Positions 24,434 to 59,695 of a stretch of 64,000 bases of DNA are shown piece by piece. The stretch is from positions 137 through 64,136 of the forward strand of contig JALZWA010000034.1 in the NCBI GenBank assembly GCA_023299815.1, in the 5' to 3' direction. The stretch comes from Akkermansiaceae bacterium. Lineage in GTDB: Bacteria; Verrucomicrobiota; Verrucomicrobiia; Verrucomicrobiales; Akkermansiaceae. Made by a program: the position numbers and the translations under genes. Under the pieces are notes generated by a model, which saw nothing but the letters and a program-made list of their open reading frames with translations, was not told the DNA's origin and made no database searches. How positions within the stretch are numbered: the first letter of the stretch is position 1; the number at the start of each line of letters is the position of its first letter.

Positions 24434-24527
24434 AAAAAAGACCCTAGAGACAGTCGCACCACTTATCCAATCATCAAATCTCCTCGCTAAGTGAAAGATT
24501 TTCGAACATGATCTCTTATATCTCTTT

Positions 24528-25271
24528 ATGAAGACTCTCTTCCTCCTACTCCTGCTTGCTCTTCCTCTCGCAGCAGTGCCCCGTGTCTTTACCGATACAA
24601 AGGGCCGCCCCCTCTCTGCTGAACTCGTCAAATCCGACGCCACCAAGGTCTGGCTCAAGCTCGATTCTGGAAAAACCACCGCTGTTCCCAAGAAGAACTT
24701 CAGCGAAGCAGACCAAGCCTACATCACAAAATGGGAAAAAGATCTCCTGCCCCAGACCCGCGTCGAGCCCAAGTTCATCCGCAGCAATACCAAGAACGAC
24801 GATGACGGCTACTTCTACGACTCCAGTCGTATCCAAAAGTTCAACATGTCCATCGAACTCAAAAACCTCAGCACTGACAAAGACCTCGAAACATCCGAGA
24901 TCATCTACTACCTCGTCGGAAAATCCAGCTCTGATGACACCTACAAGATCCTCGCCCGCCAAGTTGCCACCACCGGCGTCCCTAAGAGAGACAGCAAGGA
25001 AATCACCTTTAAGCCCATCAACAACCACTATCGCGATGACAAATCCTACAGCTCCGGCCACAAAGGCATCGGCTACGTTCTCCTCATCCAGCGCAAGCGC
25101 GATGGACGCCGCATCCACCTCAGCACCACATCTGCCCCGCTTGAGAGCGCTATCGAGAACATCATCCGCCTCAAGGAAGGAGACGTCACCGGGGCAAGCT
25201 TCATCAAAGCACCTCCCGTCCCCAGTGGTCGTAAAAAAGGTGGCGAGCCTGACACCATCATCATCCGCTAA
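24528..25271 (+). CDS. Secreted SHD1-domain protein
   Basis: Signal peptide MKTLFLLLLLALPLAA, then FTDTKGRPLSAELVKSDATKVWLKLDSGKTTAVPKKNFSEADQAYI, which matches the SLA1-homology-domain-1 pattern common in PVC bacteria. Confidence 0.6.
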   Translation: MKTLFLLLLLALPLAAVPRVFTDTKGRPLSAELVKSDATKVWLKLDSGKTTAVPKKNFSEADQAYITKWEKDLLPQTRVEPKFIRSNTKNDDDGYFYDSSRIQKFNMSIELKNLSTDKDLETSEIIYYLVGKSSSDDTYKILARQVATTGVPKRDSKEITFKPINNHYRDDKSYSSGHKGIGYVLLIQRKRDGRRIHLSTTSAPLESAIENIIRLKEGDVTGASFIKAPPVPSGRKKGGEPDTIIIR

Positions 25272-25666
25272 CCTCCTATAGGGCACTCACCCTCCTGCTG
25301 GTTTCTCAAAAAATCAGCCACCTGAGAAAAGAAAGCCATCAAGGCCTCTCGCGCATCCTCATCTGAGATCTCCTCCGCCGCAGCCGCTCCCATCAGCTCG
25401 ACCCAGCGGTCCCGCTCCGCCACCCCGATCTTGAAGGGCATATGCCTGCCCCTGAGCCGTGGATGCCCCCGCTTTTCCAAATACCGCTCATCCGCACCAA
25501 AGCGAAAGAGAAGAAAATCACGCAGCCGTTCCTCCGAGCCCTCCCAATCATCCGCCGGATACATCGGCCCGATCAGAAAATCCCTCCTCATCCTCCGGTA
25601 AAAATTCGCCGTCAATCGCGTGAAACCCTCTTCCCCCACCGCACCATAGATTTCTTCCTCATTCAT
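25268..25666 (-). CDS. Group II truncated haemoglobin (YjbI/GlbO-like)
   Basis: LRDFLLFRFGADERYLEKRGHPRLRGRHMPFKIGVAERDRWVELM is the trHbO signature region. Start set at Met11. Confidence 0.75.
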   Translation of the reverse strand: MNEEEIYGAVGEEGFTRLTANFYRRMRRDFLIGPMYPADDWEGSEERLRDFLLFRFGADERYLEKRGHPRLRGRHMPFKIGVAERDRWVELMGAAAAEEISDEDAREALMAFFSQVADFLRNQQEGECPIGG

Positions 25667-25759
25667 CAAGAATGATAAAGCAACCAATCGAAACAAAATT
25701 CAAGGATTGCTTCGTTCCCCTATCAGTTGTCACTCTGCACGCGCACCTTTTCTCAACTC

Positions 25760-28459: not shown

Positions 28460-28460
28460 C

Positions 28461-28503
28461 GGCACAAAAAAACCGCGCCCAGAACTGGGTGCGGTGCCTT
28501 TTT
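28461..28503. terminator. Bidirectional rho-independent terminator between convergent genes
   Basis: CCGCGCCCAG-AA-CTGGGTGCGG stem flanked by A7 on the left and T5 on the right. Confidence 0.75.
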
Positions 28504-28521
28504 CCTCTCCGTGAACTTGTG

Positions 28522-29589
28522 CTACTCGCTCTGAGGCGACTCCGCATAGAAACGGATGAAGCCGCGCTCTCCATCGGGAAAACTCACCACTTGCTCTCCA
28601 CTCTCGCCCACCTCTAGTCCTTCGAGATCCGACCAAGAGTCAGAAGTGAGATCGGGAGAAAACTGAGGAATCAAGCGAGCCCTCAACCCATCTACCGGCA
28701 GCTGAATCACAACTTCGGGCTCTCCTTCAACACTGACCGCAGCGACTGGAATCCGTTCACTCCCGACAGGGAGCTGCAGCGCGTAAAGAAGGCTATAAGG
28801 CAACCCGCTCGCATTCAGAGTCTCCGGAAGCTCGTTCCCCAATTCTTCATCGCTCAGCCACTGCCCGTAATCCGTCGGTAAGACAAGCGTCCCTTCTGCC
28901 ACGATTTCGCCTACTTCCGTAAAAGTAAAAGTCGCATTCGTATCCGGAAAAGGAACGTCCTCCGTGAAATCCACCTTGTTCTGAAGCTCGACCTTCACCT
29001 CCCGCTGGAAGAGGTCTCGCGAGAGTTCACTGAGCAGCAAGGTCGTCTCTCCTGAAATGTCGCCCACACTGGGTTCAACCCCATAATCTAACAGATTCGA
29101 CTGAGGGCTGCCTAAAATAGTGACCGTAAACTCCACCGTCCCTCGATCGAAGGTAGACTCGTGATCCTCATTGCGCACCTCACCCATCGCCCCCAGGAAA
29201 CCAGTGTCTAGAGTCCGCGTAATTGAAGAAATTCCTTCAGTCCTTTGCTGGATAAAAGTCGTAATCGAATCATTGACTGCGTCATAGTGGATGAGTGCCG
29301 AGACATCCAAGAAACTCTCAGAAAACGACACTCTCCCGTCGGTAAAAACGATCTCTAAAGGCCTCAAGCCGAAGGTATCCAAGGTAAGATCGATCGCGAA
29401 CTCCCCTGAGTAGCTGACAGTATCGGCATCACGATCAGCCGCTCCATCAGTCGTGCTGACGCTCATCCCAATGATCGTCTCCGCATCATCTCGAAGGGTC
29501 AAGGTCAGCTCCTCAGTGATCGGAACTGCACAAGCGATCCCCGCACCACTGAAGAGAGTCAGCGTGAAAATATTCTTCGATGAAATCAT
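28522..29589 (-). CDS. Secreted hypothetical protein
   Basis: 355-aa ORF with a signal-like N-terminus, acidic and Thr/Ser-rich. No recognised domain. Confidence 0.5.
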   Translation of the reverse strand: MISSKNIFTLTLFSGAGIACAVPITEELTLTLRDDAETIIGMSVSTTDGAADRDADTVSYSGEFAIDLTLDTFGLRPLEIVFTDGRVSFSESFLDVSALIHYDAVNDSITTFIQQRTEGISSITRTLDTGFLGAMGEVRNEDHESTFDRGTVEFTVTILGSPQSNLLDYGVEPSVGDISGETTLLLSELSRDLFQREVKVELQNKVDFTEDVPFPDTNATFTFTEVGEIVAEGTLVLPTDYGQWLSDEELGNELPETLNASGLPYSLLYALQLPVGSERIPVAAVSVEGEPEVVIQLPVDGLRARLIPQFSPDLTSDSWSDLEGLEVGESGEQVVSFPDGERGFIRFYAESPQSE

Positions 29590-29594
29590 GAGTG

Positions 29595-29993
29595 CTATTT
29601 TTTAAGAGCCATCGTCACCAACACCGTGCGCTGTCTACCAAAGGCTGGCGTATTGAAAACACTCATCGTCAGCCGAATCTTATCGTTCTTGGGATGTGAA
29701 AAAGAAACCGATTCCCCCATCGCTTGACGGGCAGCGGCATTTTCTTCAGTCCCCTTTGACTCCTTAAATCCTTTCTCCTTCACCTCGACCCACTCTTTAC
29801 CCACCGCCTTCGCCAACTGGTCCTTGAGATCGATAAAGTCGGTATCCGTGGCAAAGTAATAAGTCTTATTAGTTCCCTTCAGCGTCTTGGTAAGAAGCTG
29901 GCTCTTGGCAAAAGCCTTGCTGAGATTAGGGATATCCTGCGCAGAGAGCCCAGGGCAGAGAAGGAAGAGACACAGAAATAGAAGTCGGGTCAT
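29595..29993 (-). CDS. Small secreted hypothetical protein
   Basis: Signal peptide MTRLLFLCLFLLCPGLSA. 1-nt overlap with the upstream gene's stop. Confidence 0.55.
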   Translation of the reverse strand: MTRLLFLCLFLLCPGLSAQDIPNLSKAFAKSQLLTKTLKGTNKTYYFATDTDFIDLKDQLAKAVGKEWVEVKEKGFKESKGTEENAAARQAMGESVSFSHPKNDKIRLTMSVFNTPAFGRQRTVLVTMALKK

Positions 29994-31411
29994 CAGAGAG
30001 AAGAGGTTTGTTTGTGAAGGCTCAGGAGGATCGCGCAGTAGGTCAACGCGATCACGTGGATCGAAAAGATCGAAAGAGGAAAATCAAAACAGCTATGTGC
30101 CCCCACCCCAAGGAGACCCACGAGAAGAGCTTTCACCAAATGAGCATTCGGAGCACTGATGCGAGACTGCTTCAGCATCACCAGAGCTGCAATGATCGCA
30201 CCAGCCCCCAGCGAAAACCACGCCACGAATCCCAAATAACCCCACTCCACAATCGTCTGCAGCGGATCAGAATGCCCCCGATGCCATGCCCCAAGGAGCG
30301 CGGAATTATTCTCCGGATTGAAATAGGGAAGAAGATGGGGAAAAGCCCCCGGCCCAAAGCCATGCCAACTCCCCTCGGATGGCGAACCCATCTCGATGAG
30401 CTTCTTCATCATCTCGACCCGGGAATGGACACTCCCTGACTGCTCATTCGCACTCAGTGTCTCCACCAGAGTGCTCCAGCGAGAGAAAAGGTGGCGCGTC
30501 CCCATCGCCATGAATCCGATCACGATGGCGAGCCCCGCAAAAAATCCCACCTTCGCCTCAAGTCCCAGCGGAGCTCCCGAGCGACGCCGCTTGATCAGAG
30601 TTCGCAAGGTCTGCCACTCAAGAAGAAGAATCAGGAAAAGGCAGAAAAGGAGAATGAGGAAACCTCCCTTGGAAGCAGTCGCGATCACCCCAGCCGCACT
30701 CACAAAGCCTGCCAGAGCCCAGAAAAAAATCGTAGAAATTGGCCTCTCGTTTCTCCAGGCACGGAGAGCCAAAGCCAGCGAAATTGGAAAAACGAGATTC
30801 AAAAAAGCCGCCGCATTCGCATTATAAATGTAAGGAGCAAAGAAAGTCTCAGGATGAACCACGACAATCCCTTCCGCAGCCTGCTCCGCGGTAGCCGTTA
30901 GACCCCACACCGTTTTCATCCCTAAAATCTTGTGGCCTAAAGCCACAAAAGTCACCGCAAGACCCGCCCCCGCAAAAAGCTGAAGCAACACAATCCAAGC
31001 CTTACTCTCAACACAACGCGCTACCGCAAAGAAACCCATCATCACTCCTGCGAACTCGAGGGTGAAGTATTGCGCATCAGAATAAGCCACCGCTCCCGGT
31101 GCTCCTTCAAAAGGACGATTCAGAAAATCGGTAAAAACCCAAATCTCGCGGTCGTGATCCGAGTGCGCATTCCAAGCCATGAAACTCGCCCACAGTAAGA
31201 GAAAGCCAAGCGAGAACCAAGTCCACTTCGGCAGCTGGGGGAAGCGATGACTCCGCGGCAAAGTCGCTATTGCGAGGATTGCCAAGAGAGCCAGCCCTGC
31301 AGCCGCGAACTTGCGATACTCAATCGTACTGCTCCCAAAGGCCGCCAAGGTCCACCCCAAAAGCAGCGCCGCAAGGGCAAGAAGGATGCGTCCGCGCCAT
31401 GATTCATTCAT
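29993..31411 (-). CDS. O-antigen ligase / Wzy_C-family polytopic membrane protein
   Basis: About 10 TM helices with a periplasmic loop and the pattern WHRGHSDPLQTIVEWGYLGF, typical of the O-antigen ligase family. Start set at Met16. Confidence 0.65.
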   Translation of the reverse strand: MNESWRGRILLALAALLLGWTLAAFGSSTIEYRKFAAAGLALLAILAIATLPRSHRFPQLPKWTWFSLGFLLLWASFMAWNAHSDHDREIWVFTDFLNRPFEGAPGAVAYSDAQYFTLEFAGVMMGFFAVARCVESKAWIVLLQLFAGAGLAVTFVALGHKILGMKTVWGLTATAEQAAEGIVVVHPETFFAPYIYNANAAAFLNLVFPISLALALRAWRNERPISTIFFWALAGFVSAAGVIATASKGGFLILLFCLFLILLLEWQTLRTLIKRRRSGAPLGLEAKVGFFAGLAIVIGFMAMGTRHLFSRWSTLVETLSANEQSGSVHSRVEMMKKLIEMGSPSEGSWHGFGPGAFPHLLPYFNPENNSALLGAWHRGHSDPLQTIVEWGYLGFVAWFSLGAGAIIAALVMLKQSRISAPNAHLVKALLVGLLGVGAHSCFDFPLSIFSIHVIALTYCAILLSLHKQTSSL

Positions 31412-31472
31412 GATAAAAAGGATGATCGGGCAGAAAAAACTCTGCCAAGAAAGCACAACTCAAGAAAACCTC

Positions 31473-32180
31473 TTAGCGACGGCGAAGCACCAAAAGAGAA
31501 CCGGAGAGAAGAAGCAATAAGCTGCTACTAGGCTCTGGCACCGCCATGATGTCTTGGTCATCAAAGCCGAAACTCAAGATCGTCGCCGTTTTTGCTGGCT
31601 CGTTGATCTCGATCTGAAGAAAGCCGAGATGGGTCGTCGTGACTCCAGCTTCTGTTCTGTCAAAAATCACCGAAAAAATCCCCGCCACCGGAGCTGAAGT
31701 CGAGGTATTACTCCACTGCCCATCAGACTCGTCCGCAAAAAGATCGTTACTAGCAAGCACTCCTCGGGAATCATCATAATTCAGAGTTGGATCCAAAACC
31801 GGGGCGACTCCCAGCACCGTCTCTAGCCGCTGGGCTGTCGGAATAGGACCACCGAACAGCAATGCCGCTATCGAAGTTGGAGAAGCTGCAGAAGCGGTTT
31901 CCGCCACCCTCAAATTCCCTGCCGATCCACTTTCAGAAAGCTGAAATGTGAGGATCTCATCACCAAATATAGTGGTATTGATATCGACAAAGAAGTTCAG
32001 TTCATTGACACCGTTGCCATCCAAGTCTATCGGCAATGTCGTCGAACTTGCCCCTCCAATGACCGTTCCTGTTGTGGCGCTCGGACTCCCAAAGGTATAC
32101 ATTACCGCAGCTGAAGCGCCGCCCGGTAAAAATCCAACTGAAGCGAAGAGAGCGAAGGAAAAGGCGAGGCGTGTAAGCAT
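31473..32180 (-). CDS. PEP-CTERM sorting-domain secreted protein
   Basis: Signal peptide, and C-terminus VPEPSSSLLLLLSGSLLVLRRR. Confidence 0.8.
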   Translation of the reverse strand: MLTRLAFSFALFASVGFLPGGASAAVMYTFGSPSATTGTVIGGASSTTLPIDLDGNGVNELNFFVDINTTIFGDEILTFQLSESGSAGNLRVAETASAASPTSIAALLFGGPIPTAQRLETVLGVAPVLDPTLNYDDSRGVLASNDLFADESDGQWSNTSTSAPVAGIFSVIFDRTEAGVTTTHLGFLQIEINEPAKTATILSFGFDDQDIMAVPEPSSSLLLLLSGSLLVLRRR

Positions 32181-47733: not shown

Positions 47734-49833
47734 CTAAAAATGTTCTTTTTGCGGTTTCGCAAAGGTGAGGTCGATCTCTTCTTGATCGTCTTCTTCACCA
47801 TACTCTTGATAGGCATATCCATATGCCCCTCCTTTAGATCGCCTAGCGGAGAAGCCATTGAGAACGATTCCATCAGGAACAATTCCCGCACCATCGAGAA
47901 GACCAATCGCCGCCTGCACCGCCTTACGCGGGGTCGATTCTGCGCGAACCACCAGTGCGAGATTCTGAGAAAGAGGCGCGAGAATCCGAGTGTCAGGAAC
48001 GGCAAGAAGAGGTGCAGAATCAATCACGATGTGGTCATAGGATTTCGTAAACTCATCGAAAAGTGCTCCCAGTTTTGATGGCTCCAAAAGCTCACCCGGA
48101 TTCGGTGACTTTGGTCCCGAGAAAATGACGGTGAGATTCGGCAGCGCCTCATAGTTTGTCAGCGCCTCTTCCTGAGGAGCTGTCTTGGTCAGGATATTGA
48201 CGATCCCAGGATGCGCATTACGGGCCTCGCCAAAAAGCTTATGCATCGCTGGCTTCCGGAGATCAAAGTCGATGAGCAGGGTCTTCGTCCCCTGCCTTGC
48301 ATAGGCGATGGCAAGATTACCGGCAGCAAAGGTTTTCCCCTCACCCGGGAGCGATGAGGTCACGAGCGTGATCTTCCGCTCGTCATTGTTTCCGAGGAGA
48401 GAAATCGAAGCGCGCAGCACTCGAAAAGCCTCCGCATTCTCAATCTCAGGCCCCCAATGAGTCGCAGCTAACCGGGCTGACACTTTACTCAAAGAAGGCG
48501 GCAGCTGAGGAAATCCTTTTTTCCTCAGCTCATCTTCATCCGAAATCTGATGCACCACCGCGAGACCAGGAAAGCCCAACTCCTCGCTCACTTGCTCAAG
48601 ATTGTGAATCTTATTATCGAGTAGCTGGAATACGAAGGCGAAGAGGAACCCCACAAAGAGGCCACCCACTCCCGCCTTGGTCAGAATCGATTTCACATTT
48701 GGTGAAAATGGCTCACGCGCACGGCGTGCAGGCTCCTTGGGAATCACCTCTGACTCCGCGCGCTCTGCTGTGACCTGCTTCGTTTGGACACGCTCAAGAA
48801 GAGTTTTATAAAGCGTGCTTCGGCTTTCGATCTCACTATCGAGTGTGGACTTTCGCGCGAGTAAAAGACGGCGCATTTCCTCGAAGCGATCCTCTTCAGA
48901 AAGCTCCACGAGTTGAGTGCGAAACTGCATCCAGTGATCTCCATCCAGAGGATTATCGATCGCCGAGGTCAGTTTTTTAAGAAGATCCTCTCGCTGAATG
49001 TCATGAGCACGTGTCGTATCCTTCATCTTAGGATGCTTGTGCAAGTAGCGAATGGAATGCTGGGCCACCATTTTCTCTACCTCGATGAGAGCCTTTTCCG
49101 CCTCAAAGGGAGCGGTGTAACTTCCCAAAAGCTTCTGCGAATTCTGGAGCTCTTTTCCCACTCGTTCAGATTCACTCATGAGATACTCTAAAGTCGTCAG
49201 AGCGCCGGATGATTTACTCTTCTCACGAATTGCGATGAAATGATGCAGGAGTCGATTCGCGACCACCTCAGCGACCACCGGTGAACTGTGCACCACTGTC
49301 ACGGTAATAAAGCGCGTCTCCGGGATCGCTTCCGAGCGCGTCCAGCTTCGGATCATGTCCGCCAGCACCGCCGAGGGAGGTGCTTCTGTAATAAGAGCCG
49401 CCTTTTCATCTTCCTTACTAAAGGAGGCCAAGAAGGCAGGTGCTTGCTTTGGAATTAAGTCAGAAAGATCTCGTACTAAAGGATCAGAAGCCACTTCTTC
49501 AAATAGCTGTCGCCGCTCAAAGTCGGCTCGGACCATCTCGACTGCTTCTTTTCCCCGGAGATCGATATCCGTAGGATCGAACTTACCCATCACGGTCATG
49601 TTCCAATCCCGCACCATCAGCATCGCAGTAGAACTATAGAGCGGGACCGAGCGCTTCACCTGGAAAAAGCCCCAGACCAAGCCCAGCAGAAGCCCAAGCA
49701 GAAGCCAGTGCCAGCGCGCGATGATCCGAGGAATGAGATATGCCGGATCAAACATTCCCGGCTGACTCTTCACACTCGAATATTCTTCGTAGCCGGTCTC
49801 AGCGATAGGATCTTGGTTGCGCTTCTTTGCCAT
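47734..49833 (-). CDS. Polysaccharide co-polymerase / BY-tyrosine autokinase (Wzc/GumC-like)
   Basis: Two TM helices flanking a long coiled periplasmic domain; Walker A SSLPGEGKTFAAGNLA; C-terminal Tyr cluster GGAYGYAYQEY. Confidence 0.85.
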   Translation of the reverse strand: MAKKRNQDPIAETGYEEYSSVKSQPGMFDPAYLIPRIIARWHWLLLGLLLGLVWGFFQVKRSVPLYSSTAMLMVRDWNMTVMGKFDPTDIDLRGKEAVEMVRADFERRQLFEEVASDPLVRDLSDLIPKQAPAFLASFSKEDEKAALITEAPPSAVLADMIRSWTRSEAIPETRFITVTVVHSSPVVAEVVANRLLHHFIAIREKSKSSGALTTLEYLMSESERVGKELQNSQKLLGSYTAPFEAEKALIEVEKMVAQHSIRYLHKHPKMKDTTRAHDIQREDLLKKLTSAIDNPLDGDHWMQFRTQLVELSEEDRFEEMRRLLLARKSTLDSEIESRSTLYKTLLERVQTKQVTAERAESEVIPKEPARRAREPFSPNVKSILTKAGVGGLFVGFLFAFVFQLLDNKIHNLEQVSEELGFPGLAVVHQISDEDELRKKGFPQLPPSLSKVSARLAATHWGPEIENAEAFRVLRASISLLGNNDERKITLVTSSLPGEGKTFAAGNLAIAYARQGTKTLLIDFDLRKPAMHKLFGEARNAHPGIVNILTKTAPQEEALTNYEALPNLTVIFSGPKSPNPGELLEPSKLGALFDEFTKSYDHIVIDSAPLLAVPDTRILAPLSQNLALVVRAESTPRKAVQAAIGLLDGAGIVPDGIVLNGFSARRSKGGAYGYAYQEYGEEDDQEEIDLTFAKPQKEHF

Positions 49834-49844
49834 AGAAATTCAGA

Positions 49845-50906
49845 TTAAAAACGACGCTCGGGGACAGAGATGACATCACTAGGCACCAGGTAAAATACTG
49901 CGACGTCCCCACGCGACATCTTCTTCAAATTCAAGGAATAGACATCCTTACGCTCTCCGCTGCGACGCGTCACCGTGACCTTTTCCTCATTGGCGAGGCG
50001 TCTATATCCCCCCGCGTGACCGATCGCATTAAGGATACTCATTTTGCCGTTGAGCGCGAATGCCACTGGCCCGGGCTTATTGACCTGGCCGACAATGGTC
50101 ACTGTTTTCCCCACAAATCGACTCGGCGGAACGGTCACGATATCGCCCGGGGCGAGGCTCGTAGCCCCATTGGGGTTGATCGCCATCACCTTCGCTCCTC
50201 GCTTAATCGTCGTGCGCCCGAGGTCCGCCTCCCGGGTCACCCCTCCTGCCGTTCCAATGAGCGTCTTGAGATCAAGAATACCGCTCAGCGGAAAAGGATA
50301 AGCATTCGCCTTCGAAATCTCACCGATGATCGTCACGGTCGTATTCGCAAATCGATTGACCGGAACATCAATGCGGTCCCCATTTTGAAGAATCACCGGT
50401 CCATTCCCCGCATCCTGGAGTTTTGAAAAGACGAAGCTCCTCGTCGCATCTCCGCGGCTCAACCGAATCTCCTTCGTATTCGCGAACTCTGAAAATCCAC
50501 CGGAAGCGGCAATTGCAGTCACCAAGTCAAGCAGTGAGTCAGACGGGATGTTGACTTCACCCGGATTATTGACAGCTCCAATCACGGTGACTCTACCCTG
50601 ACGTGCTTTGATCAAAGTGAGCGTCACCTCAGGGCTCACAAGCCAGCCATCAAGATAGGCCTCGGTAATCTTCAGCTCAGCTTCTTCTAGGGTGAGGCCC
50701 GCCAGCTTGACCGAGCCGATGAAGGTGAAAGCGGCTTCCCCCGCCTGTGTGATGACCGTCTTTTTATCGAGGTCCTCTTCCTCTTGATAAACTGTAATCC
50801 CGATCTCATCAAGAGGTTGAAGTCGATATGCTGTCGCCTCAGCTGAGGCGAAAACAGCAGAGAACGCAAGCCCGAGGAAAGCCACGAGGAGGCGGATGGA
50901 GGTCAT
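49845..50906 (-). CDS. Polysaccharide export protein (Wza-like, Poly_export plus SLBB repeats)
   Basis: Signal peptide; YRLQPLDEIGITVY opening motif; repeated V.V.G.V..PG modules. Confidence 0.8.
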   Translation of the reverse strand: MTSIRLLVAFLGLAFSAVFASAEATAYRLQPLDEIGITVYQEEEDLDKKTVITQAGEAAFTFIGSVKLAGLTLEEAELKITEAYLDGWLVSPEVTLTLIKARQGRVTVIGAVNNPGEVNIPSDSLLDLVTAIAASGGFSEFANTKEIRLSRGDATRSFVFSKLQDAGNGPVILQNGDRIDVPVNRFANTTVTIIGEISKANAYPFPLSGILDLKTLIGTAGGVTREADLGRTTIKRGAKVMAINPNGATSLAPGDIVTVPPSRFVGKTVTIVGQVNKPGPVAFALNGKMSILNAIGHAGGYRRLANEEKVTVTRRSGERKDVYSLNLKKMSRGDVAVFYLVPSDVISVPERRF

Positions 50907-52361: not shown

Positions 52362-53027
52362 CTACTCTTTCAAAAAGCAATTCGCCAAGACGAAGCTTTC
52401 AAATACCCCATCTGCTTCCTCTCCCTCCTCGTAACCCCTCACCATCGCGAGCATTAGACTGGCCGCCGGAATGCTTTTTCGATTCACAATAAAATCCACC
52501 CTCATCCCCCAACTATCAAAATCCGGAATCGGTCCCTCCAGCCAGCCCTCACTCCCAAGCCAGACCAATTTGTAGACAAAAACAGGACCTGCCTCAGACG
52601 GATGCGTGAACTCATAGCGCATGATCCGACAGTCGGAAAAAGAAACCTCAAAGGACGGCGCCACCGCTTCCCCCACCGGAATCGCTCCCGATGTCGGCAT
52701 GCAAATATCCGGAGAATGTCCAAAGATATCGCGCCACACTCGCCCATTCCCCGCATCATACTCAAGCGCGATCACCATCAGCTGCTTCGCAGGGTCATCA
52801 TCGATAAACAACTGCCGGAAACTCTGACTCCTGTGAAATGAAAGAACCTCGCCGGCCCCACTGTCCGACATTGGAAAATCGATGGTGTCAGGTGAAGCGG
52901 CTGGCCGCTCCAGCCTCAGCATCGCCCCATCATCACTGACCTGGGCGAACCAAAAATACGGCAGAGCCTCGCTGAAAGCTACCGCCGCCAGAACAACAAA
53001 AAAGAAGATAGATTGTGGCCGCTTCAT
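52362..53027 (-). CDS. epsI: EpsI-family exosortase-associated protein
   Basis: N-terminal anchor and the GHSPDICMPTSG motif (EpsI HSPxxCxPxxG pattern). Located 1 nt downstream of the exosortase. Confidence 0.65.
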   Translation of the reverse strand: MKRPQSIFFFVVLAAVAFSEALPYFWFAQVSDDGAMLRLERPAASPDTIDFPMSDSGAGEVLSFHRSQSFRQLFIDDDPAKQLMVIALEYDAGNGRVWRDIFGHSPDICMPTSGAIPVGEAVAPSFEVSFSDCRIMRYEFTHPSEAGPVFVYKLVWLGSEGWLEGPIPDFDSWGMRVDFIVNRKSIPAASLMLAMVRGYEEGEEADGVFESFVLANCFLKE

Positions 53028-53028
53028 T

Positions 53029-53913
53029 TTATTTTGCGTGAACCCTTCTACGAACCACCCTCGCTCTCCGGCGATGGATCATCCAAGCCGCGACCGATAC
53101 CCCTCCGTAGACGATCAGAAGCACGAGAAATCCAAGCGGATCGTGAGCGGCCTCCACCGCCTCTGCCGTTTGCTCATTCCCAATTTTCCCTAACATGTAA
53201 ATCCGGAGAACATTCCCTCCCACTGCCAAACTCAAACTCACGAGTAACAAACTCACTCGCTGCCAAAACGACCCCCGACACACCTCTCCGAGAAAAAGTG
53301 CCGCTGCCGCACTACTCTGAAACGAGCGGATTCCACTGCACCCATCCGCAATATCGAGCGGCAGAGTTTTCGTAAGAAGAAGCTGCCCCAGCCGCTCGAC
53401 CATCTGACCGCTGAGCAGAAGAAGACTCTGCCCAGAATCGATCACGATCGCGGTAAGTGTATCCACAAGAGGATTTTCCACGAGACTCGGGAGAGGGACC
53501 GCAACGAGGCAAAAGAGCGTCGCTGGCAGGCAAGACCAGCTCGTCGCTTTCCCCGAAACCAGAATCAAAATTAGATGGAATGCACTGAGCGAGACCACCG
53601 CGTGGATCCAGAGCGGAAGCCGCCAAAGAGGATCCATCGATTCACTCAGGCGGAGAGGGATCAAAGCGACCAAACAAAATGCTAACACCCCAGTTTCTAG
53701 AGAAGTCAGCTTTTCGCCTTCCCCTTTCCACTCACTCCACCGCAGCCAAAAAAGAATCGCGCATGCCAGAGGCACCAGCCAACCAAAATCATAATAATCA
53801 GAGCCGCTCCAACTTGCAGAAAGAGCCCAAAAGAGCTGCACCGCCAGCGCAAGCAAAGCGAACACCGCCATCACCTGCTGAAGCTCGACACTCTTTTTCT
53901 GCTTGCTCATCAC
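53029..53913 (-). CDS. Exosortase (Xrt family transpeptidase)
   Basis: Polytopic protein with YYDFGWLVP, VAVPLPSL, catalytic-Cys motif DIADGCSGIRS, Arg motif GGNVLRIY, and His motif AAHDPLGF. Confidence 0.8.
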   Translation of the reverse strand: MMSKQKKSVELQQVMAVFALLALAVQLFWALSASWSGSDYYDFGWLVPLACAILFWLRWSEWKGEGEKLTSLETGVLAFCLVALIPLRLSESMDPLWRLPLWIHAVVSLSAFHLILILVSGKATSWSCLPATLFCLVAVPLPSLVENPLVDTLTAIVIDSGQSLLLLSGQMVERLGQLLLTKTLPLDIADGCSGIRSFQSSAAAALFLGEVCRGSFWQRVSLLLVSLSLAVGGNVLRIYMLGKIGNEQTAEAVEAAHDPLGFLVLLIVYGGVSVAAWMIHRRRARVVRRRVHAK

Positions 53914-55595
53914 TTTAAAAAATCAGGCCAATACGTTCTCAAGTGGCTCAGCAAATAAGGAGGGAGGTCGTCGCTTTCAAGAAACTCAGAAAGCGCAGCC
54001 GCTTCCCTTTTCTGATCATTCATAAAGAGAACAGTGGCCATCACCGCCCGGTCTGGAGCCGCCAGCTTCTCTCCCCGATATTCAGAGAGCTGCTCAAGAG
54101 CCATCTCTGGGTTTTGGCCCAACTCGGTAAGCGCCAGAGCTGCTGAAAGTGAGGCCGCAGGAGAGTCATGATTGAGAGGAATGAGAAGCCGACGCGCACG
54201 CGAAAGATCTCCTCCGCTCACAGTCAAAAGCAACGCATAGCGATAGCGAGCAAAGCGATCGTGAGGACGCGCCGCATGGACCCGCTCGTAAAAATCAGCC
54301 CCTTTTTTGCCGTCATAGTCCAAATAGCGCTCTAAAAAGACAAGCTCGACAGCCGGAGGCCACTCATCAGGAGATAGTCGCATAATCGCCTCCGCTATTT
54401 TCTGCGCTCCCTTCCCATCCTTAAATCGTTCGGCCAGTTTCAGGATCACCTGGTGAGCCTGATATGTTCCATCCAAAGACGCTGCTTCCAGCGCCCGCTC
54501 TCGGTAGAAAATTCCCTGAATGCTATTCCCTGTCTGAAACTCCAATCCGGCCTTCGTTGCCTCTAGAAAATAATTTTTCATCTTAGAATGAGGGGTTTCC
54601 AGAAGCTTCAGAGCCTCGGTATATTGCTCATCGTCGATCAGACTCTGCACCTTGGCCAAAAAGGTCGTCAGATCTTCCTGAGCCCTCTCAGATGAGAGAG
54701 CTGGCAGACGCTCCGAGGCTTGATTCTCCAGCAGCCACTTCGCGAGCGCTCCCGGATCTCTCTGCTCATACTGCTCCACGATCTGCTCGAGCAGCTTTTC
54801 ACGCTCCTCTCCCTCGAGCCTTCGCACATGAAGACCAGCGGCAAAAAGCCGCTCCTCTACCCCACCAAGTTTCCTTTGATCCAGCCACAACAGAAGTTGG
54901 TCTCCACGAAAAAGATCACCCGCTTTGTCCAAATCAGCAATCGCTCGAAAACCTCGGAGAGCTCTCTCATCTTCCCCTGCCATTTCCCGCTGGATCAATA
55001 GCACCGCAAGACGCCGGGCTGCCGGATCTTGGTCGAGTCCACTGAGAAGCTCACGAATCAAAATCCATTCTTCAGCGCTTGGGGCATCGGTCAACCAATC
55101 CTGTGTTGAGAGAAAGGCGGCCTCAAGACGCCCCTCTTGCTGCAAAACTCGGCTTTTTAAGAAACCAATTTTCCGATCTCCAGCCAAAGAACTAGGGAGT
55201 TCGCCCTCCACTTTCCGAAAGAAATCCAATCGCCCTAAAGAGAGCGCCCCTTCTAAGACTTGGCGGTAATCTTCACCAGTAACATCCACTTGCTTGAGCA
55301 AGGTATCCGCGATCGTCTCGTAGCTCGCTGAGCGAAGAGTTCGCGAAAGCTCTAGCAAGTCGCGGAGCTGATCAGCGGACCTCGTAGAGACTTCCCATGC
55401 CAGCACAAGCTGCTCATGCGCCAAGGATAAATCCTGACTCGCGAGCGCCTTCTCAGCTTCTTGAATCGTTTTCTCAAAGCGCCATTTCCACAGCCCTCGT
55501 TTTACAGGAATCGCTAAAAAAGCCACCGCCACGAAACCGCTAATAACGAAACTCCAGAAGACTCGACGAGAAATAGTTCGCTTGGCAGGACGCAT
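53910..55595 (-). CDS. Membrane-anchored all-helical (TPR-like) protein, paralogue 1
   Basis: N-terminal TM helix and helical-repeat composition. Clearly paralogous to 56799-58463 (for example FYERVHAARPHDRFARYRYALLLTVSGGDLSRARRLLIPL versus FYERLHASRPSEPFTRRKYALMLTVAGEENSRARRLLMPL). ATGA overlap with the exosortase start. Confidence 0.6.
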   Translation of the reverse strand: MRPAKRTISRRVFWSFVISGFVAVAFLAIPVKRGLWKWRFEKTIQEAEKALASQDLSLAHEQLVLAWEVSTRSADQLRDLLELSRTLRSASYETIADTLLKQVDVTGEDYRQVLEGALSLGRLDFFRKVEGELPSSLAGDRKIGFLKSRVLQQEGRLEAAFLSTQDWLTDAPSAEEWILIRELLSGLDQDPAARRLAVLLIQREMAGEDERALRGFRAIADLDKAGDLFRGDQLLLWLDQRKLGGVEERLFAAGLHVRRLEGEEREKLLEQIVEQYEQRDPGALAKWLLENQASERLPALSSERAQEDLTTFLAKVQSLIDDEQYTEALKLLETPHSKMKNYFLEATKAGLEFQTGNSIQGIFYRERALEAASLDGTYQAHQVILKLAERFKDGKGAQKIAEAIMRLSPDEWPPAVELVFLERYLDYDGKKGADFYERVHAARPHDRFARYRYALLLTVSGGDLSRARRLLIPLNHDSPAASLSAALALTELGQNPEMALEQLSEYRGEKLAAPDRAVMATVLFMNDQKREAAALSEFLESDDLPPYLLSHLRTYWPDFLK

Positions 55596-55627
55596 TTACG
55601 GACGAACCGTAGCACGAAGTTCGGCAC

Positions 55628-55654
55628 AAAAAAATGCAGGAAAATGACTTCCTG
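55628..55654 (-). terminator. Weak intrinsic terminator/attenuator between the cargo gene and TPR-like paralogue 1
   Basis: On the minus strand, CAGGAA-GUCAUU-UUCCUG is followed by CAUUUUUUU. Confidence 0.4.
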
Positions 55655-55676
55655 TATTTGACGATTGCGAGAGTCC

Positions 55677-56507
55677 CTAAGACCTCCGCTTTCGTAGGAA
55701 TGTCCAAGGCATCAACATTACCAACAAGGGCAGCACCGCTCCTACCTCAGGAACTGTAATCGAGGTCTTGGCCAGCGAGATCGTCGATTCTCCGTAGACG
55801 ATCTCATAGCCCTCAGGCAGACCAGAGACGTTATAAAAACGACCACGTCCTTCACCCGGAGCTACCGTAGCAAAGGTGTATGAATCTTCCGTGAGTTCAC
55901 CCAGTTGGCTAAAAGTGATAAAACTACCATTAATCGCCATCGCCCCAGCTGCAAAAACCAGATCAGTTCCTCCCTCACCACCCAACTCAATGAACCAGTT
56001 ATGATCGAGAATTTCCAGATCTCCATCCGTTCCATAGGAACCGATCGTTTCGTAGCCCCCGGGATTGATAAAGCCTGATTTTCCAGTGCTGGGCCAATTC
56101 CCGTCATCTGGCCACCACTGAGAGTCTCCCGTCGAAGTATCTCCGGTCCGCCCATCGTCTCTGGGTATTTCCTCCCTGGCGATCGCAGTTGCCGTTTTAT
56201 CCACAGCAGTAGCGACCAAGAGACCCTGCTCTTGACTAGTGAATTCCTCTCGGACGAGATCATCTCGAACGGCAGTCGCAACCTGATCAATCAGATCACC
56301 GGCAAACTTGCTTTCGCCTGCTTGCTGCTGCTCCGAAATGATGCCCGAAATCCTTTCCAAGTATTCGGAAAAGGCGCGAGAAGGCTCCTGCCGGACTTCA
56401 TCGGTAATTGTGGCACGACCAGAACCTTCCTCACCGCCCTTTTGTGCAAAGGCAGGCGAAGCAAGAACCAGCGCTAATAAAGCGGTCTGCTTAAATCGAG
56501 TTTTCAT
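55677..56507 (-). CDS. Secreted protein with variant PEP-type C-terminal sorting signal (VPEV...LPL...PW...RKRRS)
   Basis: Signal peptide MKTRFKQTALLALVLASPAFA from Met17. C-terminus ...GLPEGYEIVYGESTISLAKTSITVPEVGAVLPLLVMLMPWTFLRKRRS. Confidence 0.7.
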   Translation of the reverse strand: MKTRFKQTALLALVLASPAFAQKGGEEGSGRATITDEVRQEPSRAFSEYLERISGIISEQQQAGESKFAGDLIDQVATAVRDDLVREEFTSQEQGLLVATAVDKTATAIAREEIPRDDGRTGDTSTGDSQWWPDDGNWPSTGKSGFINPGGYETIGSYGTDGDLEILDHNWFIELGGEGGTDLVFAAGAMAINGSFITFSQLGELTEDSYTFATVAPGEGRGRFYNVSGLPEGYEIVYGESTISLAKTSITVPEVGAVLPLLVMLMPWTFLRKRRS

Positions 56508-56798
56508 GTAAATTGGGGGTGAAACCAACGTGCTGATTACTAACTTAGCTAGCAATCCGCAGACGAGTGATTGTCAATCGACCCCAATTAACTCAAGTTT
56601 GAAAATATCTGACGTTGAGAGAATCTCCTCATTTATCTCTCGAAGCCTTTTAAAATAGAGGCTCATTGTGAATAACTCTGAGCCCAACCGGTTAATTTTT
56701 ATAATTCGAGCCCAAAATCTTATTTTAGATCTCCTTATTAATAGCCGACTTGTCCCTTTCTAGGCTCTCGAACAAGCCCACCCAGACAGCTCCTTTCA

Positions 56799-58463
56799 CT
56801 AAAAGGTCCTCAAAAAGCTCAACAAGTAGGGCTGAACCCGTGATTCATCCAGCGTCTCGGATAGCTCTTTCGCCTCATCAGCCTTCCCATTCTCAGATAA
56901 AATAGTCGCGTAGATCAGTTTCGCTGGATCTTGCAAACCACTCGGATCGATCTCCTCAATCTCGGCCAGTGCCCTTGCGGGGTCATCCCTTAACCAGGTC
57001 ATCGCAATCGCACATGAAAGCGACTCGGAAGGATGAGTCCGAAGAAGAGGCATGAGTAATCGGCGCGCCCGCGAGTTTTCCTCCCCTGCCACGGTGAGCA
57101 TGAGGGCATATTTTCTTCGGGTAAATGGCTCACTTGGGCGGCTCGCATGCAACCTTTCGTAGAAGGCACAGATTGCGTTCGCATCGAAATCCATATATCG
57201 GTCCAGAAATTCCAACTTCGTTGCACTCGGCAATAAGCCCGGATTAAGCTCACTCATTGCCATGGCAACCTTCTCCGAACTCTCCCGATCTTCAAATCGC
57301 TCTGAAATCATCAAGATTGCAGAGAAAAATTTATAGCGTTGAGAGAGCGCGGCCGCCTGAATCGCTCGATTCCGGTGGAACAAGCTAGCCGAAGAATCCC
57401 CCAACTGATAGGCCAAGCCCGATTTTAGGGCCTCTACGAGATGCTTCTCAACTCGGGGATGAGGAACTTCCAGCCACTTCCACGCTTGCTTGTAGTCACC
57501 CCGGTCAATCGCCACCTGAATTCTTGCAAGATAAGTATCTTCACTGACGGCACTCTCATCCGAGAGCATCTCCTCGAGAGCTTCAGCGGCGTGATTCTTA
57601 AGCAGCCAACGCACCACCTCCGCTGAATTTTCTTCTCCGAACTTGTCCCTCACACCCACAATAAAAGCTTGGCGATCTTCCTCAGGGATTTGACTCAAGA
57701 CTAAGCCATGAGCAAAAAGAAGATCCTGAACCGTCCCAACAGTTGTCCGTTCCAACCAGTCAGCGATCTCATTGCCCAGACCGTGATCTTGCTCGACTTT
57801 GAATAGCTGAAGATCTCTCAAAGCCAAAAGGCCCACCTCAGAATCGACGGAAGCAAGATCCTCCCGAACAAGAGCCGCTGCCTCTTCGAAAGCCTCTTGC
57901 TCATTTCTATTCTTTAAGAGCAGCTGTCTCAACAGACTCCGTGCCTCAGGAACCTTTTGGAGATTGCTCCTCGCCCAAGAGAGCGCCTCTGACTCCCTTC
58001 CTGTAGACGCTAGGAATCTGCTCTGGTAAAACTGAAAGTGAGCCTCCTCCTGCAGCGCATCAGGCATCTTTTCATAAAGAGATGAAAAGAGATGGGGCTG
58101 TCCGAAATCGAGGCAAATGCCCAAAGCTCGATCATAGTCCTCTCGCTTGAGATCGTCCTTATCGAGGAATGCTGTCAGGACAGCAACGATCATAGGAGAG
58201 CGATTGTTCTGAGCAAGCCCTAGAACCTTGCGCAGCTCCTCAAGGGATTGGTCCGAGACATGCCAAGCGAACTTCAAGGAATGCTCCGCTTGCTGACCAT
58301 TCCCCTCGCCAAAGTGGTCGACTGCTTCCGAGAGTGATCGCTCGAAGCGGAACTCACGAAGATAATTCTTCGCAGGCTTCAGCGCACAAATAGCAATGAC
58401 AATCAGGAGAACAGAAATAACAGACTTCCGGCTGCGAAGGACTTTCTGAAACAGCGTTTTCAT
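56799..58463 (-). CDS. Membrane-anchored all-helical (TPR-like) protein, paralogue 2
   Basis: Same architecture and conserved blocks as 53910-55595. C-terminus QPYLLSFLRTF versus PPYLLSHLRTYWPDFLK. Confidence 0.6.
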   Translation of the reverse strand: MKTLFQKVLRSRKSVISVLLIVIAICALKPAKNYLREFRFERSLSEAVDHFGEGNGQQAEHSLKFAWHVSDQSLEELRKVLGLAQNNRSPMIVAVLTAFLDKDDLKREDYDRALGICLDFGQPHLFSSLYEKMPDALQEEAHFQFYQSRFLASTGRESEALSWARSNLQKVPEARSLLRQLLLKNRNEQEAFEEAAALVREDLASVDSEVGLLALRDLQLFKVEQDHGLGNEIADWLERTTVGTVQDLLFAHGLVLSQIPEEDRQAFIVGVRDKFGEENSAEVVRWLLKNHAAEALEEMLSDESAVSEDTYLARIQVAIDRGDYKQAWKWLEVPHPRVEKHLVEALKSGLAYQLGDSSASLFHRNRAIQAAALSQRYKFFSAILMISERFEDRESSEKVAMAMSELNPGLLPSATKLEFLDRYMDFDANAICAFYERLHASRPSEPFTRRKYALMLTVAGEENSRARRLLMPLLRTHPSESLSCAIAMTWLRDDPARALAEIEEIDPSGLQDPAKLIYATILSENGKADEAKELSETLDESRVQPYLLSFLRTF

Positions 58464-58515
58464 ACTCGATCATACGAGCTTATCTCGCTCTCCTAAGGTT
58501 CCTTTGATCGAGTCC

Positions 58516-59040
58516 CTATCGGCGGCGGCGTGACCAGAACCAAGGCAACAACATCCCCATAAGCGGAAGAATCGTACTGACTTCAGGAACAGAGAGATTC
58601 ACAAGGTAGACTTCATTCTGAACATAGGAGACCCCATAACCGTCCGGAAGGCCCGTCACCGTAGCAAATTGCCCGATACTGGTAGTGCCGCCAGCATCGG
58701 TGATGTTCCCGCTCCCGCTCGTGGCTTGGTAAATTAGAATCGAATTTGCGAGAGGCTCGCTGATAATATTGATTGCCAATGTACTACCAGTCAGGTCACC
58801 CGACACACTCTGCACATAATCAGAGCCATCAGAGCTTAAATCTATCAACCATCTTTGGTTCCCTTCAATATGGCCGTCGCCGATACTCGTCGCCACGATA
58901 CCAACTCCACCAGGATCAATGGTGCCGCCCTTACCATCACCACCACCGTCAAGTTCATCATCGGCCCTCTGTGAGAAGCCTATCGTAGTAAGTGAAGAAA
59001 AGATAAGTAGGAATAAGGTCTTAATTGAGATCGAAGTCAT
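58516..59040 (-). CDS. Secreted protein with variant PEP-type C-terminal sorting signal (VPEV...LPL...PW...RRRR)
   Basis: Signal peptide MTSISIKTLFLLIFSSLTTIGFS from Met71 of the track ORF. C-terminus ...GLPDGYGVSYVQNEVYLVNLSVPEVSTILPLMGMLLPWFWSRRRR. Confidence 0.7.
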   Translation of the reverse strand: MTSISIKTLFLLIFSSLTTIGFSQRADDELDGGGDGKGGTIDPGGVGIVATSIGDGHIEGNQRWLIDLSSDGSDYVQSVSGDLTGSTLAINIISEPLANSILIYQATSGSGNITDAGGTTSIGQFATVTGLPDGYGVSYVQNEVYLVNLSVPEVSTILPLMGMLLPWFWSRRRR

Positions 59041-59077
59041 TTGAGAATATAATTGGGGGTGAAACATCGGAGAAAAC

Positions 59078-59695
59078 TTAGACCGCACGGCGGCGGCGAC
59101 CAACGAAACACACTGAGGCCAATAGGGCCAACACGGCGCTCGATGGCTCAGGAACAGGAGCTGTCGCGGCGATCGCCTGACCCAGCGTGATCGCCGTCGC
59201 AGGAGAGGTGGAATCCGGATCGTAGACAAACGCACCAAAGGAAGGAGCAAAGAGATCAGAGTCCCCCGAAGGCCTCAACTCGAAGCTGATCCAACCGTAG
59301 TGATCCTGTGAGTCCTTAATAGCGGTCCAATTCGTAGTTCCGGCGACGTATCCATTGAGCAGAACGTTTGTGCCAGCAAATCCATACCAGTTCGTGAAGA
59401 AATCCACTTCCCTAGGAAAGGCCGTATCGGCTTGAAAACCTTCACCCGAGTTCTCAAAAAAATCTCCCGCAGTGTCAGAATCCCCGAAAAATTGGGTCGA
59501 GTTCAAGAAGTTCAATCCGCCAACGACGGTGGGCTGAGCAATTTCGAAGTCTGCGATGGAATCTCCATCAAGAAAGATAGCGGTGCCGCGATCGAGCGAC
59601 GAGCCATTCTGCTCCGATAGATCAAACACAGTAATTTGCGCGCTCGCAGAAATTGCGGATAGAACAAAAATAGAGATGAATTTCTTAATTGTCAT
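59078..59695 (-). CDS. PEP-CTERM sorting-domain secreted protein (classical)
   Basis: Signal peptide MTIKKFISIFVLSAISASA. C-terminus VPEPSSAVLALLASVCFVGRRRRAV. Confidence 0.8.
   Translation of the reverse strand: MTIKKFISIFVLSAISASAQITVFDLSEQNGSSLDRGTAIFLDGDSIADFEIAQPTVVGGLNFLNSTQFFGDSDTAGDFFENSGEGFQADTAFPREVDFFTNWYGFAGTNVLLNGYVAGTTNWTAIKDSQDHYGWISFELRPSGDSDLFAPSFGAFVYDPDSTSPATAITLGQAIAATAPVPEPSSAVLALLASVCFVGRRRRAV

Follow-up and report, generated by a model that had tools for sequence, protein, structure and literature searches.

A 64,000-nt stretch of the Akkermansiaceae contig JALZWA010000034.1 (the whole stretch is called the window below) carries, immediately upstream of an exosortase gene, two consecutive copies of a gene pair, each made up of a gene for a secreted cargo protein with a variant C-terminal sorting tail and a gene for a membrane-anchored helical protein that resembles tetratricopeptide repeat (TPR) proteins. 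The whole module lies on the minus strand. Its open reading frames (ORFs) are as described in the initial annotation, with both pairs upstream of the exosortase in one orientation, and together with their translations they give the order VPEP protein, cargo2, TPR2, cargo1, TPR1, exosortase, EpsI-like protein, outer-membrane candidate, Wza-like protein, Wzc-like protein. The features are the following.

59078..59695, minus strand: canonical VPEPSS-tailed secreted protein, 205 aa, the first gene of the unit
58516..59040, minus strand: cargo2, 174 aa (183 aa from an upstream start), with signal peptide, small Gly/Ser-rich domain and variant tail
58519..58590, minus strand: cargo2 sorting tail, VPEVSTILPLMGMLLPWFWSRRRR, by direct translation
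56799..58463, minus strand: TPR2, 554 aa, with N-terminal transmembrane anchor, then TPR-like solenoid
55677..56507, minus strand: cargo1, 276 aa, with signal peptide, helical N-terminal part, shared C-terminal domain and variant tail
55680..55754, minus strand: cargo1 sorting tail, VPEVGAVLPLLVMLMPWTFLRKRRS, by direct translation
55637..55654, minus strand: terminator-like hairpin and T-run between cargo1 and TPR1, a consensus match only
53910..55595, minus strand: TPR1, 561 aa, with N-terminal transmembrane anchor, then TPR superhelix
53029..53913, minus strand: exosortase, 294 aa, whose start overlaps the TPR1 stop, outside all Xrt subfamilies
52362..53027, minus strand: putative EpsI-like protein, 221 aa, from position, motif and homology to a fused domain in the related locus L004
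50923..52380, minus strand: secreted protein, 485 aa, candidate outer-membrane barrel, conserved in position and ending in ...YRF
49845..50906, minus strand: Wza/EpsE-like polysaccharide export protein with Poly_export and SLBB domains
47734..49833, minus strand: Wzc-like chain-length determinant/tyrosine kinase with GNVR and AAA_31 domains

Two paralogous pairs of cargo and TPR proteins

TPR1 and TPR2 share 34% identity over 537 residues (E 5e-98), and the motifs FYER.HA.RP, SRARRLL.PL and PYLLS.LRT, on which the initial annotation had based their paralogy, are present in both. Their description as all helical and N-terminally anchored also stands, as an AlphaFold2 model of TPR1 built with 50 family sequences (pLDDT 95.2) is helical throughout, with a helix at residues 4-52 that continues into a solenoid of about 33 more helices, and hydropathy gives one hydrophobic segment, at residues 11-32. 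The label TPR-like is in line with this model, with matches to TPR_19 (TPR2 reaches 24.6 bits, just under the cut-off of 25) and with a Foldseek search against the PDB, in which TPR1 had 162 matches at E<=1e-3 and all 50 matches listed were TPR or similar helical-repeat proteins, including APC/C subunits, Ctr9 and Naa15/NatA subunits. The best TM-score among the matches listed belongs to LbcA (PDB 8sxf_C, TMq 0.40); a sequence search of the PDB found no match.

An exhaustive HMMER search with both paralogs yielded a family of 249 clusters at 50% identity (E<=1e-3), 70 of them at <=1e-10, whose members are mostly 550-620 aa long and are matched end to end. TPR_19 is matched by 31 of 50 members, the Pfam and NCBIfam matches to the family are to generic TPR models only, and public records name these proteins hypothetical or 'tetratricopeptide repeat protein'. 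TPR1 and TPR2 thus represent an unnamed and unannotated family. A word-indexed protein search with TPR1 returned TPR1 itself only, and a protein search with the family profile returned mostly generic TPR proteins.

A single N-terminal hydrophobic segment is present in 45 of the 50 members. Some members carry an Arg/Lys/Ser-rich extension of 40-80 residues before this transmembrane segment, which makes an N-in/C-out orientation with a periplasmic solenoid the likelier topology; the positive-inside rule was tried for the same purpose and gave an ambiguous answer, the charge being similar on both sides of the segment. Most of the family also shows a conserved aromatic-Arg motif just after the transmembrane segment (about residues 33-42 of TPR1), typically W-R (KWRF, NWRF, GWRY, EWR) and F-R in TPR2, and this region, with basic residues on both flanks of the segment, may form an interfacial helix.

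The two cargos are paralogs as well, as the initial annotation had proposed: they share 31% identity over 137 C-terminal residues (E 8e-17), a stretch that includes GLP(E/D)GY and the common tail. Their translations keep an N-terminal signal peptide together with an extreme C-terminal motif, transmembrane helix and basic cluster, and the exosortase gene lies one to three genes downstream. The start of cargo2 is ambiguous, being called at 174 or 183 aa in public gene calls. The AlphaFold2 model of cargo1, built from four sequences, was unusable at a pLDDT of 39.9, and therefore no cargo fold is assigned. Upstream of both genes, an exact 15-mer, GTTTCACCCCCAATT, lies 8-15 nt 5' of the start codons (56515-56523 and 59055-59063, minus strand), and the 9-mer TTCACCCCC occurs in the 64 kb solely at those two sites. 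Similar C-rich leaders, TTCACCCCCTTACGAAAG-ATG and CCCCCTCCCCCC-ATG, precede the cargo genes of the closest related locus (about 9065-9087 and 7948-7962 of L002, see below). The C-rich element occupies the Shine-Dalgarno position before the cargos. Matches to a sigma-54 promoter of the kind found at proteobacterial PEP-CTERM genes were no commoner than chance would give, and the sequence before the cargos had none.

Scanned with a regular expression in six frames, the window shows exactly five PEP-CTERM-like tails, three with VPEP (stops at 6752, 31473 and 59078) and the two cargo tails, both of the form VPEV-x3-LP-x6-PW-x3-R-rich. The isolated VPEP tails score 23.2-26.5 bits with PF07589, all above its cut-off of 20.7; for the 205-aa protein the isolated 37-aa tail gives 26.5 bits and the full-length protein 22.2, with 21.0 and 17.2 bits, respectively, for TIGR02595 (cut-off 16). 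The two VPEV tails and three orthologous tails from L002, a locus of a Verrucomicrobiaceae metagenome-assembled genome (MAG; contig JBPOGH010000008.1) and the one genome locus found using the four closest sequences, have no PF07589 match at E<=10. As isolated tails, cargo2 reaches 16.3 bits with TIGR02595, against a cut-off of 16, and its L002 orthologue 15.8, where VPEP tails reach 21-29, those of the window 21-27.7; cargo1-type isolated tails have no match to this model, and neither does full-length cargo2 at E<=0.1. None of the named variant CTERM models (VPLPA, VPDSG, VPEID, PEPxxWA and others) matches the window tails. The earlier view that the VPEV tail is non-canonical is thereby confirmed, as neither the curated PEP-CTERM models nor any of the named variant models covers these tails, while the VPEP tails pass PF07589.

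The same departure is seen in relatives. In place of Pro-Glu-Pro, both window cargos have Pro-Glu-Val, and five relatives encoded upstream of TPR genes in L002, L003 and L015 have PEV or PEL. A PE-x5-P-x6-P spacing is common to the tails of the window, L002 and L015, and of its two prolines L003 keeps just the first. None of the PE[VL] tails passes PF07589; the VPEP tails of the window and L002 do so at 23.2-32.1 bits, those of L017 (20.6) and L004 (20.4) fall just under its cut-off of 20.7, and the IPEP tail of L008 has no PF07589 match. The cargo family itself is small. Cargo2 has a 53% identical orthologue in L002 and cargo1 has two co-orthologues there by tblastn (52%, ORF 9088-9903; 41%, ORF 7963-8841); three public relatives of cargo2 were found in all, a protein search with the cargos returned the MAG orthologues and the window's own protein and nothing else, and neither the exact cargo family nor the PW form of the tail turned up outside the window genome and the MAG. 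In metagenomes, the pattern VPE[VL][GS][ATS][VCI]LP[LM] matched 75 stretches, none confirmed as a cargo relative, and a DNA pattern for VPE[VL]-x3-LP-x6-PW-x3-RRR matched once, by chance, in a frame that is not coding, this second pattern being too strict because its PW requirement excludes variants like those of L003 and L015.

Most likely, the cargo tail is a derived PEP-CTERM-type tail of the form [VI]PE[VL]-x4-P-x6-P followed by a basic cluster. It resembles the tails described by PF07589 and TIGR02595 in its place at the extreme C terminus, in its order of motif, hydrophobic helix and Arg-rich end, and in belonging to proteins with an N-terminal signal peptide that are encoded beside an exosortase in an exopolysaccharide (EPS) locus. 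It differs in having PE[VL] instead of PEP, conserved prolines at +7 and +14 with a tryptophan after the second, and no PF07589 match or better than marginal TIGR02595 match. We think it very improbable that the VPEV proteins are not exosortase substrates at all, with the tail acting as a permanent membrane anchor and the cargo as a tethered partner or regulator of the TPR protein. Such a role would suit the replacement, in 7/7 examples, of the near-invariant second proline of PEP, a loss which, together with the prolines inside the helix, would make a permanent anchor, and it would also suit the failure to match Pfam and the tiny cargo family, confined to one lineage. Against it, however, the proteins retain the motif, the helix, the C-terminal basic cluster and the signal peptide, they are encoded within one to three genes of the exosortase, and the cargo2 tail still reaches the TIGR02595 cut-off.

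The exosortase and the head of the EPS operon

The window exosortase matches PF09721 at 117 bits (E 1e-33) and TIGR04178 at 56 bits (cut-off 23), and its translation shows the CSGIR and AHDP motifs with the conserved Cys, Arg and His. It lies below the cut-off of every Xrt subfamily (XrtA-XrtX and the cyanoexosortases): the best score is for XrtA, at 88 bits against 208, followed by XrtD (61 against 400) and XrtC (32 against 300), and there is no match to XrtE. Four other exosortases, three of the same clade and the second exosortase of L003, likewise fail every Xrt cut-off. In a neighbor-joining tree of 11 exosortases, the enzymes of about 300 aa that adjoin TPR genes group together (window, L002, L003A, L014A, L006, L011 and L015; clade A below), and a second type (L003B, L014B) and fused forms (L004, L008) stand apart. 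By tblastn a single exosortase is detectable in the 64 kb, so that the earlier remark that only one is visible holds for the window; it cannot be carried over to the genome level. The related loci L003 and L014 have two exosortases back to back. In these two loci (L003 2277-9914, L014 4849-9960) two divergent exosortase/EpsI-like pairs, of types 31-33% identical to each other, lie side by side, with one TPR-family gene before the second pair and another after it, and in L003 each side has its own cargo (VPEA, VPEV).

The TPR1/exosortase junction reads AAGTGATGAGC, which gives an overlap of GTGA (4 nt, with a GTG start) or TGATG (1 nt, with an ATG start) and not the ATGA overlap that had been reported. 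Downstream of TPR1 the gaps between genes are -19 to +16 nt, the 485-aa gene overlapping the EpsI-like gene by 19 nt. The 221-aa protein next to the exosortase has no Pfam or NCBIfam match, the EpsI models TIGR02914 and PF11984 included, yet it appears to be EpsI-like, because it follows the exosortase (as it also does in L002, L003, L011, L014 and L015), has a homologue in the C-terminal domain of the fused L004 exosortase and shares with it the motif H(S/R)P(D/E)(I/V)C. As judged from these sequence features, it would represent a branch of EpsI-like proteins that current models lack. In its longer form the conserved motif reads H(S/R)P(D/E)(I/V)C(L/M)P..G. The 485-aa secreted protein, with no family match in Pfam or NCBIfam, is kept between the EpsI-like gene and wza in L002 (53% identity) and L003 (31%) and is probably an outer-membrane barrel of the operon.

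The Wza/EpsE-like protein scores below the TIGR03027 cut-off, and the Wzc-like protein is 71% identical to its L002 counterpart. Further downstream follow an ABC protein, an acyltransferase, many GT1/GT4 glycosyltransferases, an initiating GT4-family transferase, a Wzy_C protein and another VPEP protein. Upstream, a strong terminator after rpsU (60034-60001) precedes the gene for the 205-aa VPEPSS protein, whose orthologue in L002, 50% identical, occupies the corresponding position. As a whole, the region forms the head of a Verrucomicrobial exosortase-associated EPS operon.

Elsewhere in the window, proteins with PSD and PSCyt domains point to the PVC superphylum (Planctomycetes, Verrucomicrobia, Chlamydiae). 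Positions 22000-32000 show a strong negative GC skew (to -0.35) and a positive AT skew (to +0.28), strongest at about 22-28 kb, a region that includes a plus-strand 910-aa Ser/Thr-kinase-like ORF overlapped by long ORFs in other frames and on the opposite strand. PADLOC found no match.

Recurrence of the TPR family beside exosortases

The locus closest to that of the window, L002, has nearly the same layout: VPEP protein, cargo (VPEVSSVLPMLGVFAPWFWSRRRR), TPR, two cargos in succession (VPELGTVLPLMAMMGPWFIGRRR and VPELGACLPLMAMLLPWGWKRRRR), TPR, exosortase, EpsI-like protein, outer-membrane candidate, Wza and Wzc. Reciprocal best matches pair TPR1 with the L002 protein TPRa (43.5%) and TPR2 with TPRb (39.5%), and the cargos pair likewise, which indicates that the duplication is older than the split of the two lineages and that each cargo-TPR pair has been inherited as a unit. 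In L002 (about 6128-6158), cargo 171 and TPRb are separated by a hairpin with TTTTTT, like the one between cargo1 and TPR1 in the window; both are consensus matches only, and such intergenic hairpins might set a high cargo-to-TPR expression ratio.

More distant loci vary this layout. L003 has a cargo (VPEVSSLIP...CRRR), TPR, exosortase, EpsI-like protein, second TPR, outer-membrane candidate and Wza, with the second exosortase/EpsI pair and its VPEA cargo on the other side, and L014 repeats the L003 layout minus the cargo. L015 has a partial cargo (IPELSHATPLLSGLLPLLMVRVRRRR), TPR, a second TPR/Sel1-like gene, exosortase, EpsI-like protein and Wza; L006 has TPR, a Sel1-like gene and exosortase; and in L011 the TPR gene is convergent with the exosortase/EpsI genes. 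L004/L005 combine a fused exosortase-EpsI protein, a VPEP cargo and a TPR gene, and L008 has its exosortase 3 kb off and a convergent IPEP cargo. In L017 the TPR gene directly follows the gene for a VPEP-tailed, metalloprotease-like cargo, and no exosortase is encoded within 10 kb; in L009/L010 (Methylacidiphilales) there is neither a cargo nor an exosortase nearby.

Overall, an exosortase gene lies within about 3 kb of the TPR gene in 9 of 11 judgeable contexts (window, L002, L003, L004/L005, L006, L008, L011, L013/L014 and L015/L016, as against L009/L010 and L017; L007 was left out of the tally as a contig end intervenes), and in six lineages the gene immediately before the TPR gene encodes a sorting-tail cargo: the window (twice), L002 (twice), L003, L004/L005, L015 and L017. 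A genome has one or two exosortases, and even in Verrucomicrobium, with its 65 PEP-CTERM genes, these account for about 1% of genes (PMC1569441). Because both gene types are so rare per genome, the linkage of the TPR family to each is far above chance. The TPR-exosortase association first proposed from the window alone is thus seen in most of the judgeable contexts of the family, which is a regular accessory of one unclassified exosortase clade with EpsI-like partners.

Two further observations concern the genes around the TPR family. A second helical-repeat protein of about 480-510 aa, with weak Sel1 and TPR_27 matches and no detectable similarity to TPR1 or TPR2, is encoded between the TPR-family gene and the exosortase (L006 1957-3492, L007 11728-13236, L015 2034-3464). 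In L017 (8868-9866) the PEP-CTERM protein before the TPR-family gene contains HExxH (VAVHELAHVLG), and there are no exosortase or EPS genes nearby, so that the cargo-TPR pair can evidently travel without the enzyme.

The main rival to a cargo-related function is that the TPR proteins are structural or assembly parts of the envelope machinery formed by exosortase, EpsI, Wza and Wzc, a role that TPR modules have in other polysaccharide export systems, and that their adjacency to cargos reflects nothing more than a shared operon. This we consider unlikely. It would account for TPR genes that lie without an adjacent cargo between EpsI-like and outer-membrane genes (L003, L014) or convergent with exosortase/EpsI (L011), for the second, unrelated TPR/Sel1-like gene that comes after the TPR gene and before the exosortase in L006, L007 and L015, and for a TPR family that covers both tail types. 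It fits less well with cargos directly upstream in six lineages, including L017, where neither exosortase nor EPS gene is nearby, and with cargo-TPR pairs that were each inherited as a unit since before the window and L002 lineages split. Moreover, the export genes here are Wza-, Wzc- and Wzy-like, and Wzy-dependent systems of this kind are not known to depend on a TPR scaffold.

The initial annotation had also noted that distinct tail subclasses usually go with dedicated exosortase subfamilies or accessory factors, and had suggested that the TPR proteins may be specificity or chaperone factors for this subclass. With respect to the enzyme, all four cargo-bearing lineages with a clade-A exosortase have PE[VL] cargos upstream of the TPR gene, whereas all three cargo-bearing lineages outside clade A have PEP cargos (4/4 against 0/3; Fisher's exact 1/35, calculated by hand on a small sample of related lineages). 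This is suggestive of a PE[VL] tail that tracks one exosortase clade, and to that extent the earlier expectation is supported; against a strict dedication stands the canonical VPEP cargo (59078-59695) with which this operon begins in the window, as it also does in L002. With respect to the TPR proteins, distant family members directly follow ordinary VPEP cargos (L004/L005, L017), and because of these pairings the family is not specific to the variant tail. The idea of a specificity factor for the tail subclass is therefore not upheld: the family is broad, with its 249 clusters, the exact cargo and tail were found in just two genomes, and some members pair with VPEP cargos or with no cargo.

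We accordingly find it improbable that the locus encodes a dedicated three-part sorting system, in which PE[VL]-x4-P-x6-P is read solely by this exosortase clade and the TPR protein is its specificity or chaperone factor. The 4/4 against 0/3 distribution argues for such a system, as do the failure of the tails to match PEP-CTERM and every named variant model and the L003 arrangement, where the second exosortase has a VPEA cargo on its own side of the locus. However, the same TPR family pairs with VPEP tails, and in both the window and L002 the operon begins with a canonical VPEP cargo. The four lineages, being related to one another, do not give an independent count, and L003 lacks the second proline.

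A probable counterpart of the cargo-PrsT arrangement

On balance, we lean toward the reading that the cargo-TPR pairs are a Verrucomicrobial counterpart of the cargo-PrsT arrangement of proteobacteria, equipped with a PEP-CTERM tail in derived form. PrsT was defined as a marker of proteobacterial PEP-CTERM systems by Haft et al. 2006 (PMC1569441) and is a TPR lipoprotein about 900 aa in length; TIGRFAMs found neither PrsT nor EpsI in Verrucomicrobium spinosum (PMC1569441). In Aquincola tertiaricarbonis, prsT is genetically required for an EPS-dependent floc phenotype (PMC9850573), although published accounts still describe the role of PrsT as open. The pepA-prsT genes of the XrtA system of that organism (PrsT being TIGR02917), an arrangement known from the XrtA systems of Betaproteobacteria, resemble the window pairs in that a PEP-CTERM-type cargo gene lies directly upstream of a TPR gene (PMC9850573, PMC1569441), in that a stem-loop lies between the two, comparable to the cargo1/TPR1 and L002 hairpins, and in that both belong to an exosortase/EPS system, the window family being associated with exosortases across genomes as PrsT is. 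The differences are that TPR1 and TPR2 have 561 and 554 aa against about 900, with an N-terminal transmembrane helix and no lipobox against a lipoprotein signal, and that the window genes lie immediately before the exosortase, are duplicated and show no sigma-54 motif. TIGR02917 (cut-off 312) does not match TPR1 or TPR2, and relatives score 23-67 bits in local, non-collinear matches. Specific homology to PrsT was considered and rejected on these weak matches and on an hhalign match that an unrelated TPR control equals; it follows that what links the pairs to PrsT is their context and likely function, and no specific homology can be demonstrated.

We propose that the cargo would cross the inner membrane via Sec, with its C-terminal helix keeping it tethered there. 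The TPR superhelix of about 530 residues, anchored in the inner membrane beside the cargo and most probably periplasmic, would serve as a scaffold that holds the tethered cargo or presents it to the co-translated exosortase/EpsI-like pair. The exosortase would then cut at the PE[VL] motif and pass the cargo toward the polysaccharide or outer layer made by the downstream genes.

Several observations weigh against this proposal. The hhalign comparison of the family with PrsT (E 1.2e-18, 483 columns) is about as good as that with an unrelated long TPR family used as a control (E 2.5e-17, 472 columns). Lys and Arg flank the transmembrane segment on both sides (a mean of 3.1 before and 3.6 after it). 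Two of the 11 contexts, L009/L010 and L017, have no exosortase within 10 kb, and the contexts sampled are few and lack phylogenetic independence. Some members of the family have no cargo next to them (the second copy of L003, L014 and L011), which would suit a general operon scaffold equally.

Other known systems resemble the locus in part. The VPLPA-CTERM/XrtD, VPDSG-CTERM/XrtC, VPEID-CTERM/XrtE and PEPxxWA-CTERM systems likewise combine a variant tail with a particular exosortase clade and encode the cargo beside the enzyme, but their tail models miss the window tails, and the window exosortase is far below XrtC and XrtD and has no match to XrtE. A TPR partner is not known to be among the defining features of these systems. 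LbcA, the TPR adaptor of the periplasmic protease CtpA, is like TPR1 a TPR protein of the bacterial envelope and scaffolds a processing protease; it differs in being a lipoprotein with 15% identity to TPR1, the match between them being one of the generic TPR superhelix, and the APC/C, Ctr9 and NatA subunits outrank it by E-value.

Exosortase systems are widespread and have received little biochemical characterization. The locus described here brings to light a TPR family that lacks annotation, comprises about 250 clusters at 50% identity and accompanies one Verrucomicrobiota exosortase clade. It shows that the order of cargo gene then TPR gene recurs in unrelated exosortase systems, and it exposes two gaps in current annotation models, including a tail variant that they miss. 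Since it combines two cognate pairs with one enzyme in compact, duplicated form, it offers an internally controlled test case for a possible hand-over of substrates from TPR proteins to exosortases, and specialists should value it as a means of studying what a TPR partner contributes to an exosortase. A further reading, which we regard as possible but doubtful, is that of a dedicated and hitherto undefined Verrucomicrobiota exosortase system of four parts, namely, a distinct exosortase clade that fails every Xrt model, an EpsI-like partner that current models do not detect, an obligatory membrane-anchored TPR protein from a new family and a cognate [VI]PE[VL]-x4-P-x6-P-CTERM signal on cargos encoded just upstream of the TPR gene. 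If this were true, the TPR protein would handle substrates for an exosortase and would be the first accessory of this kind to be identified.

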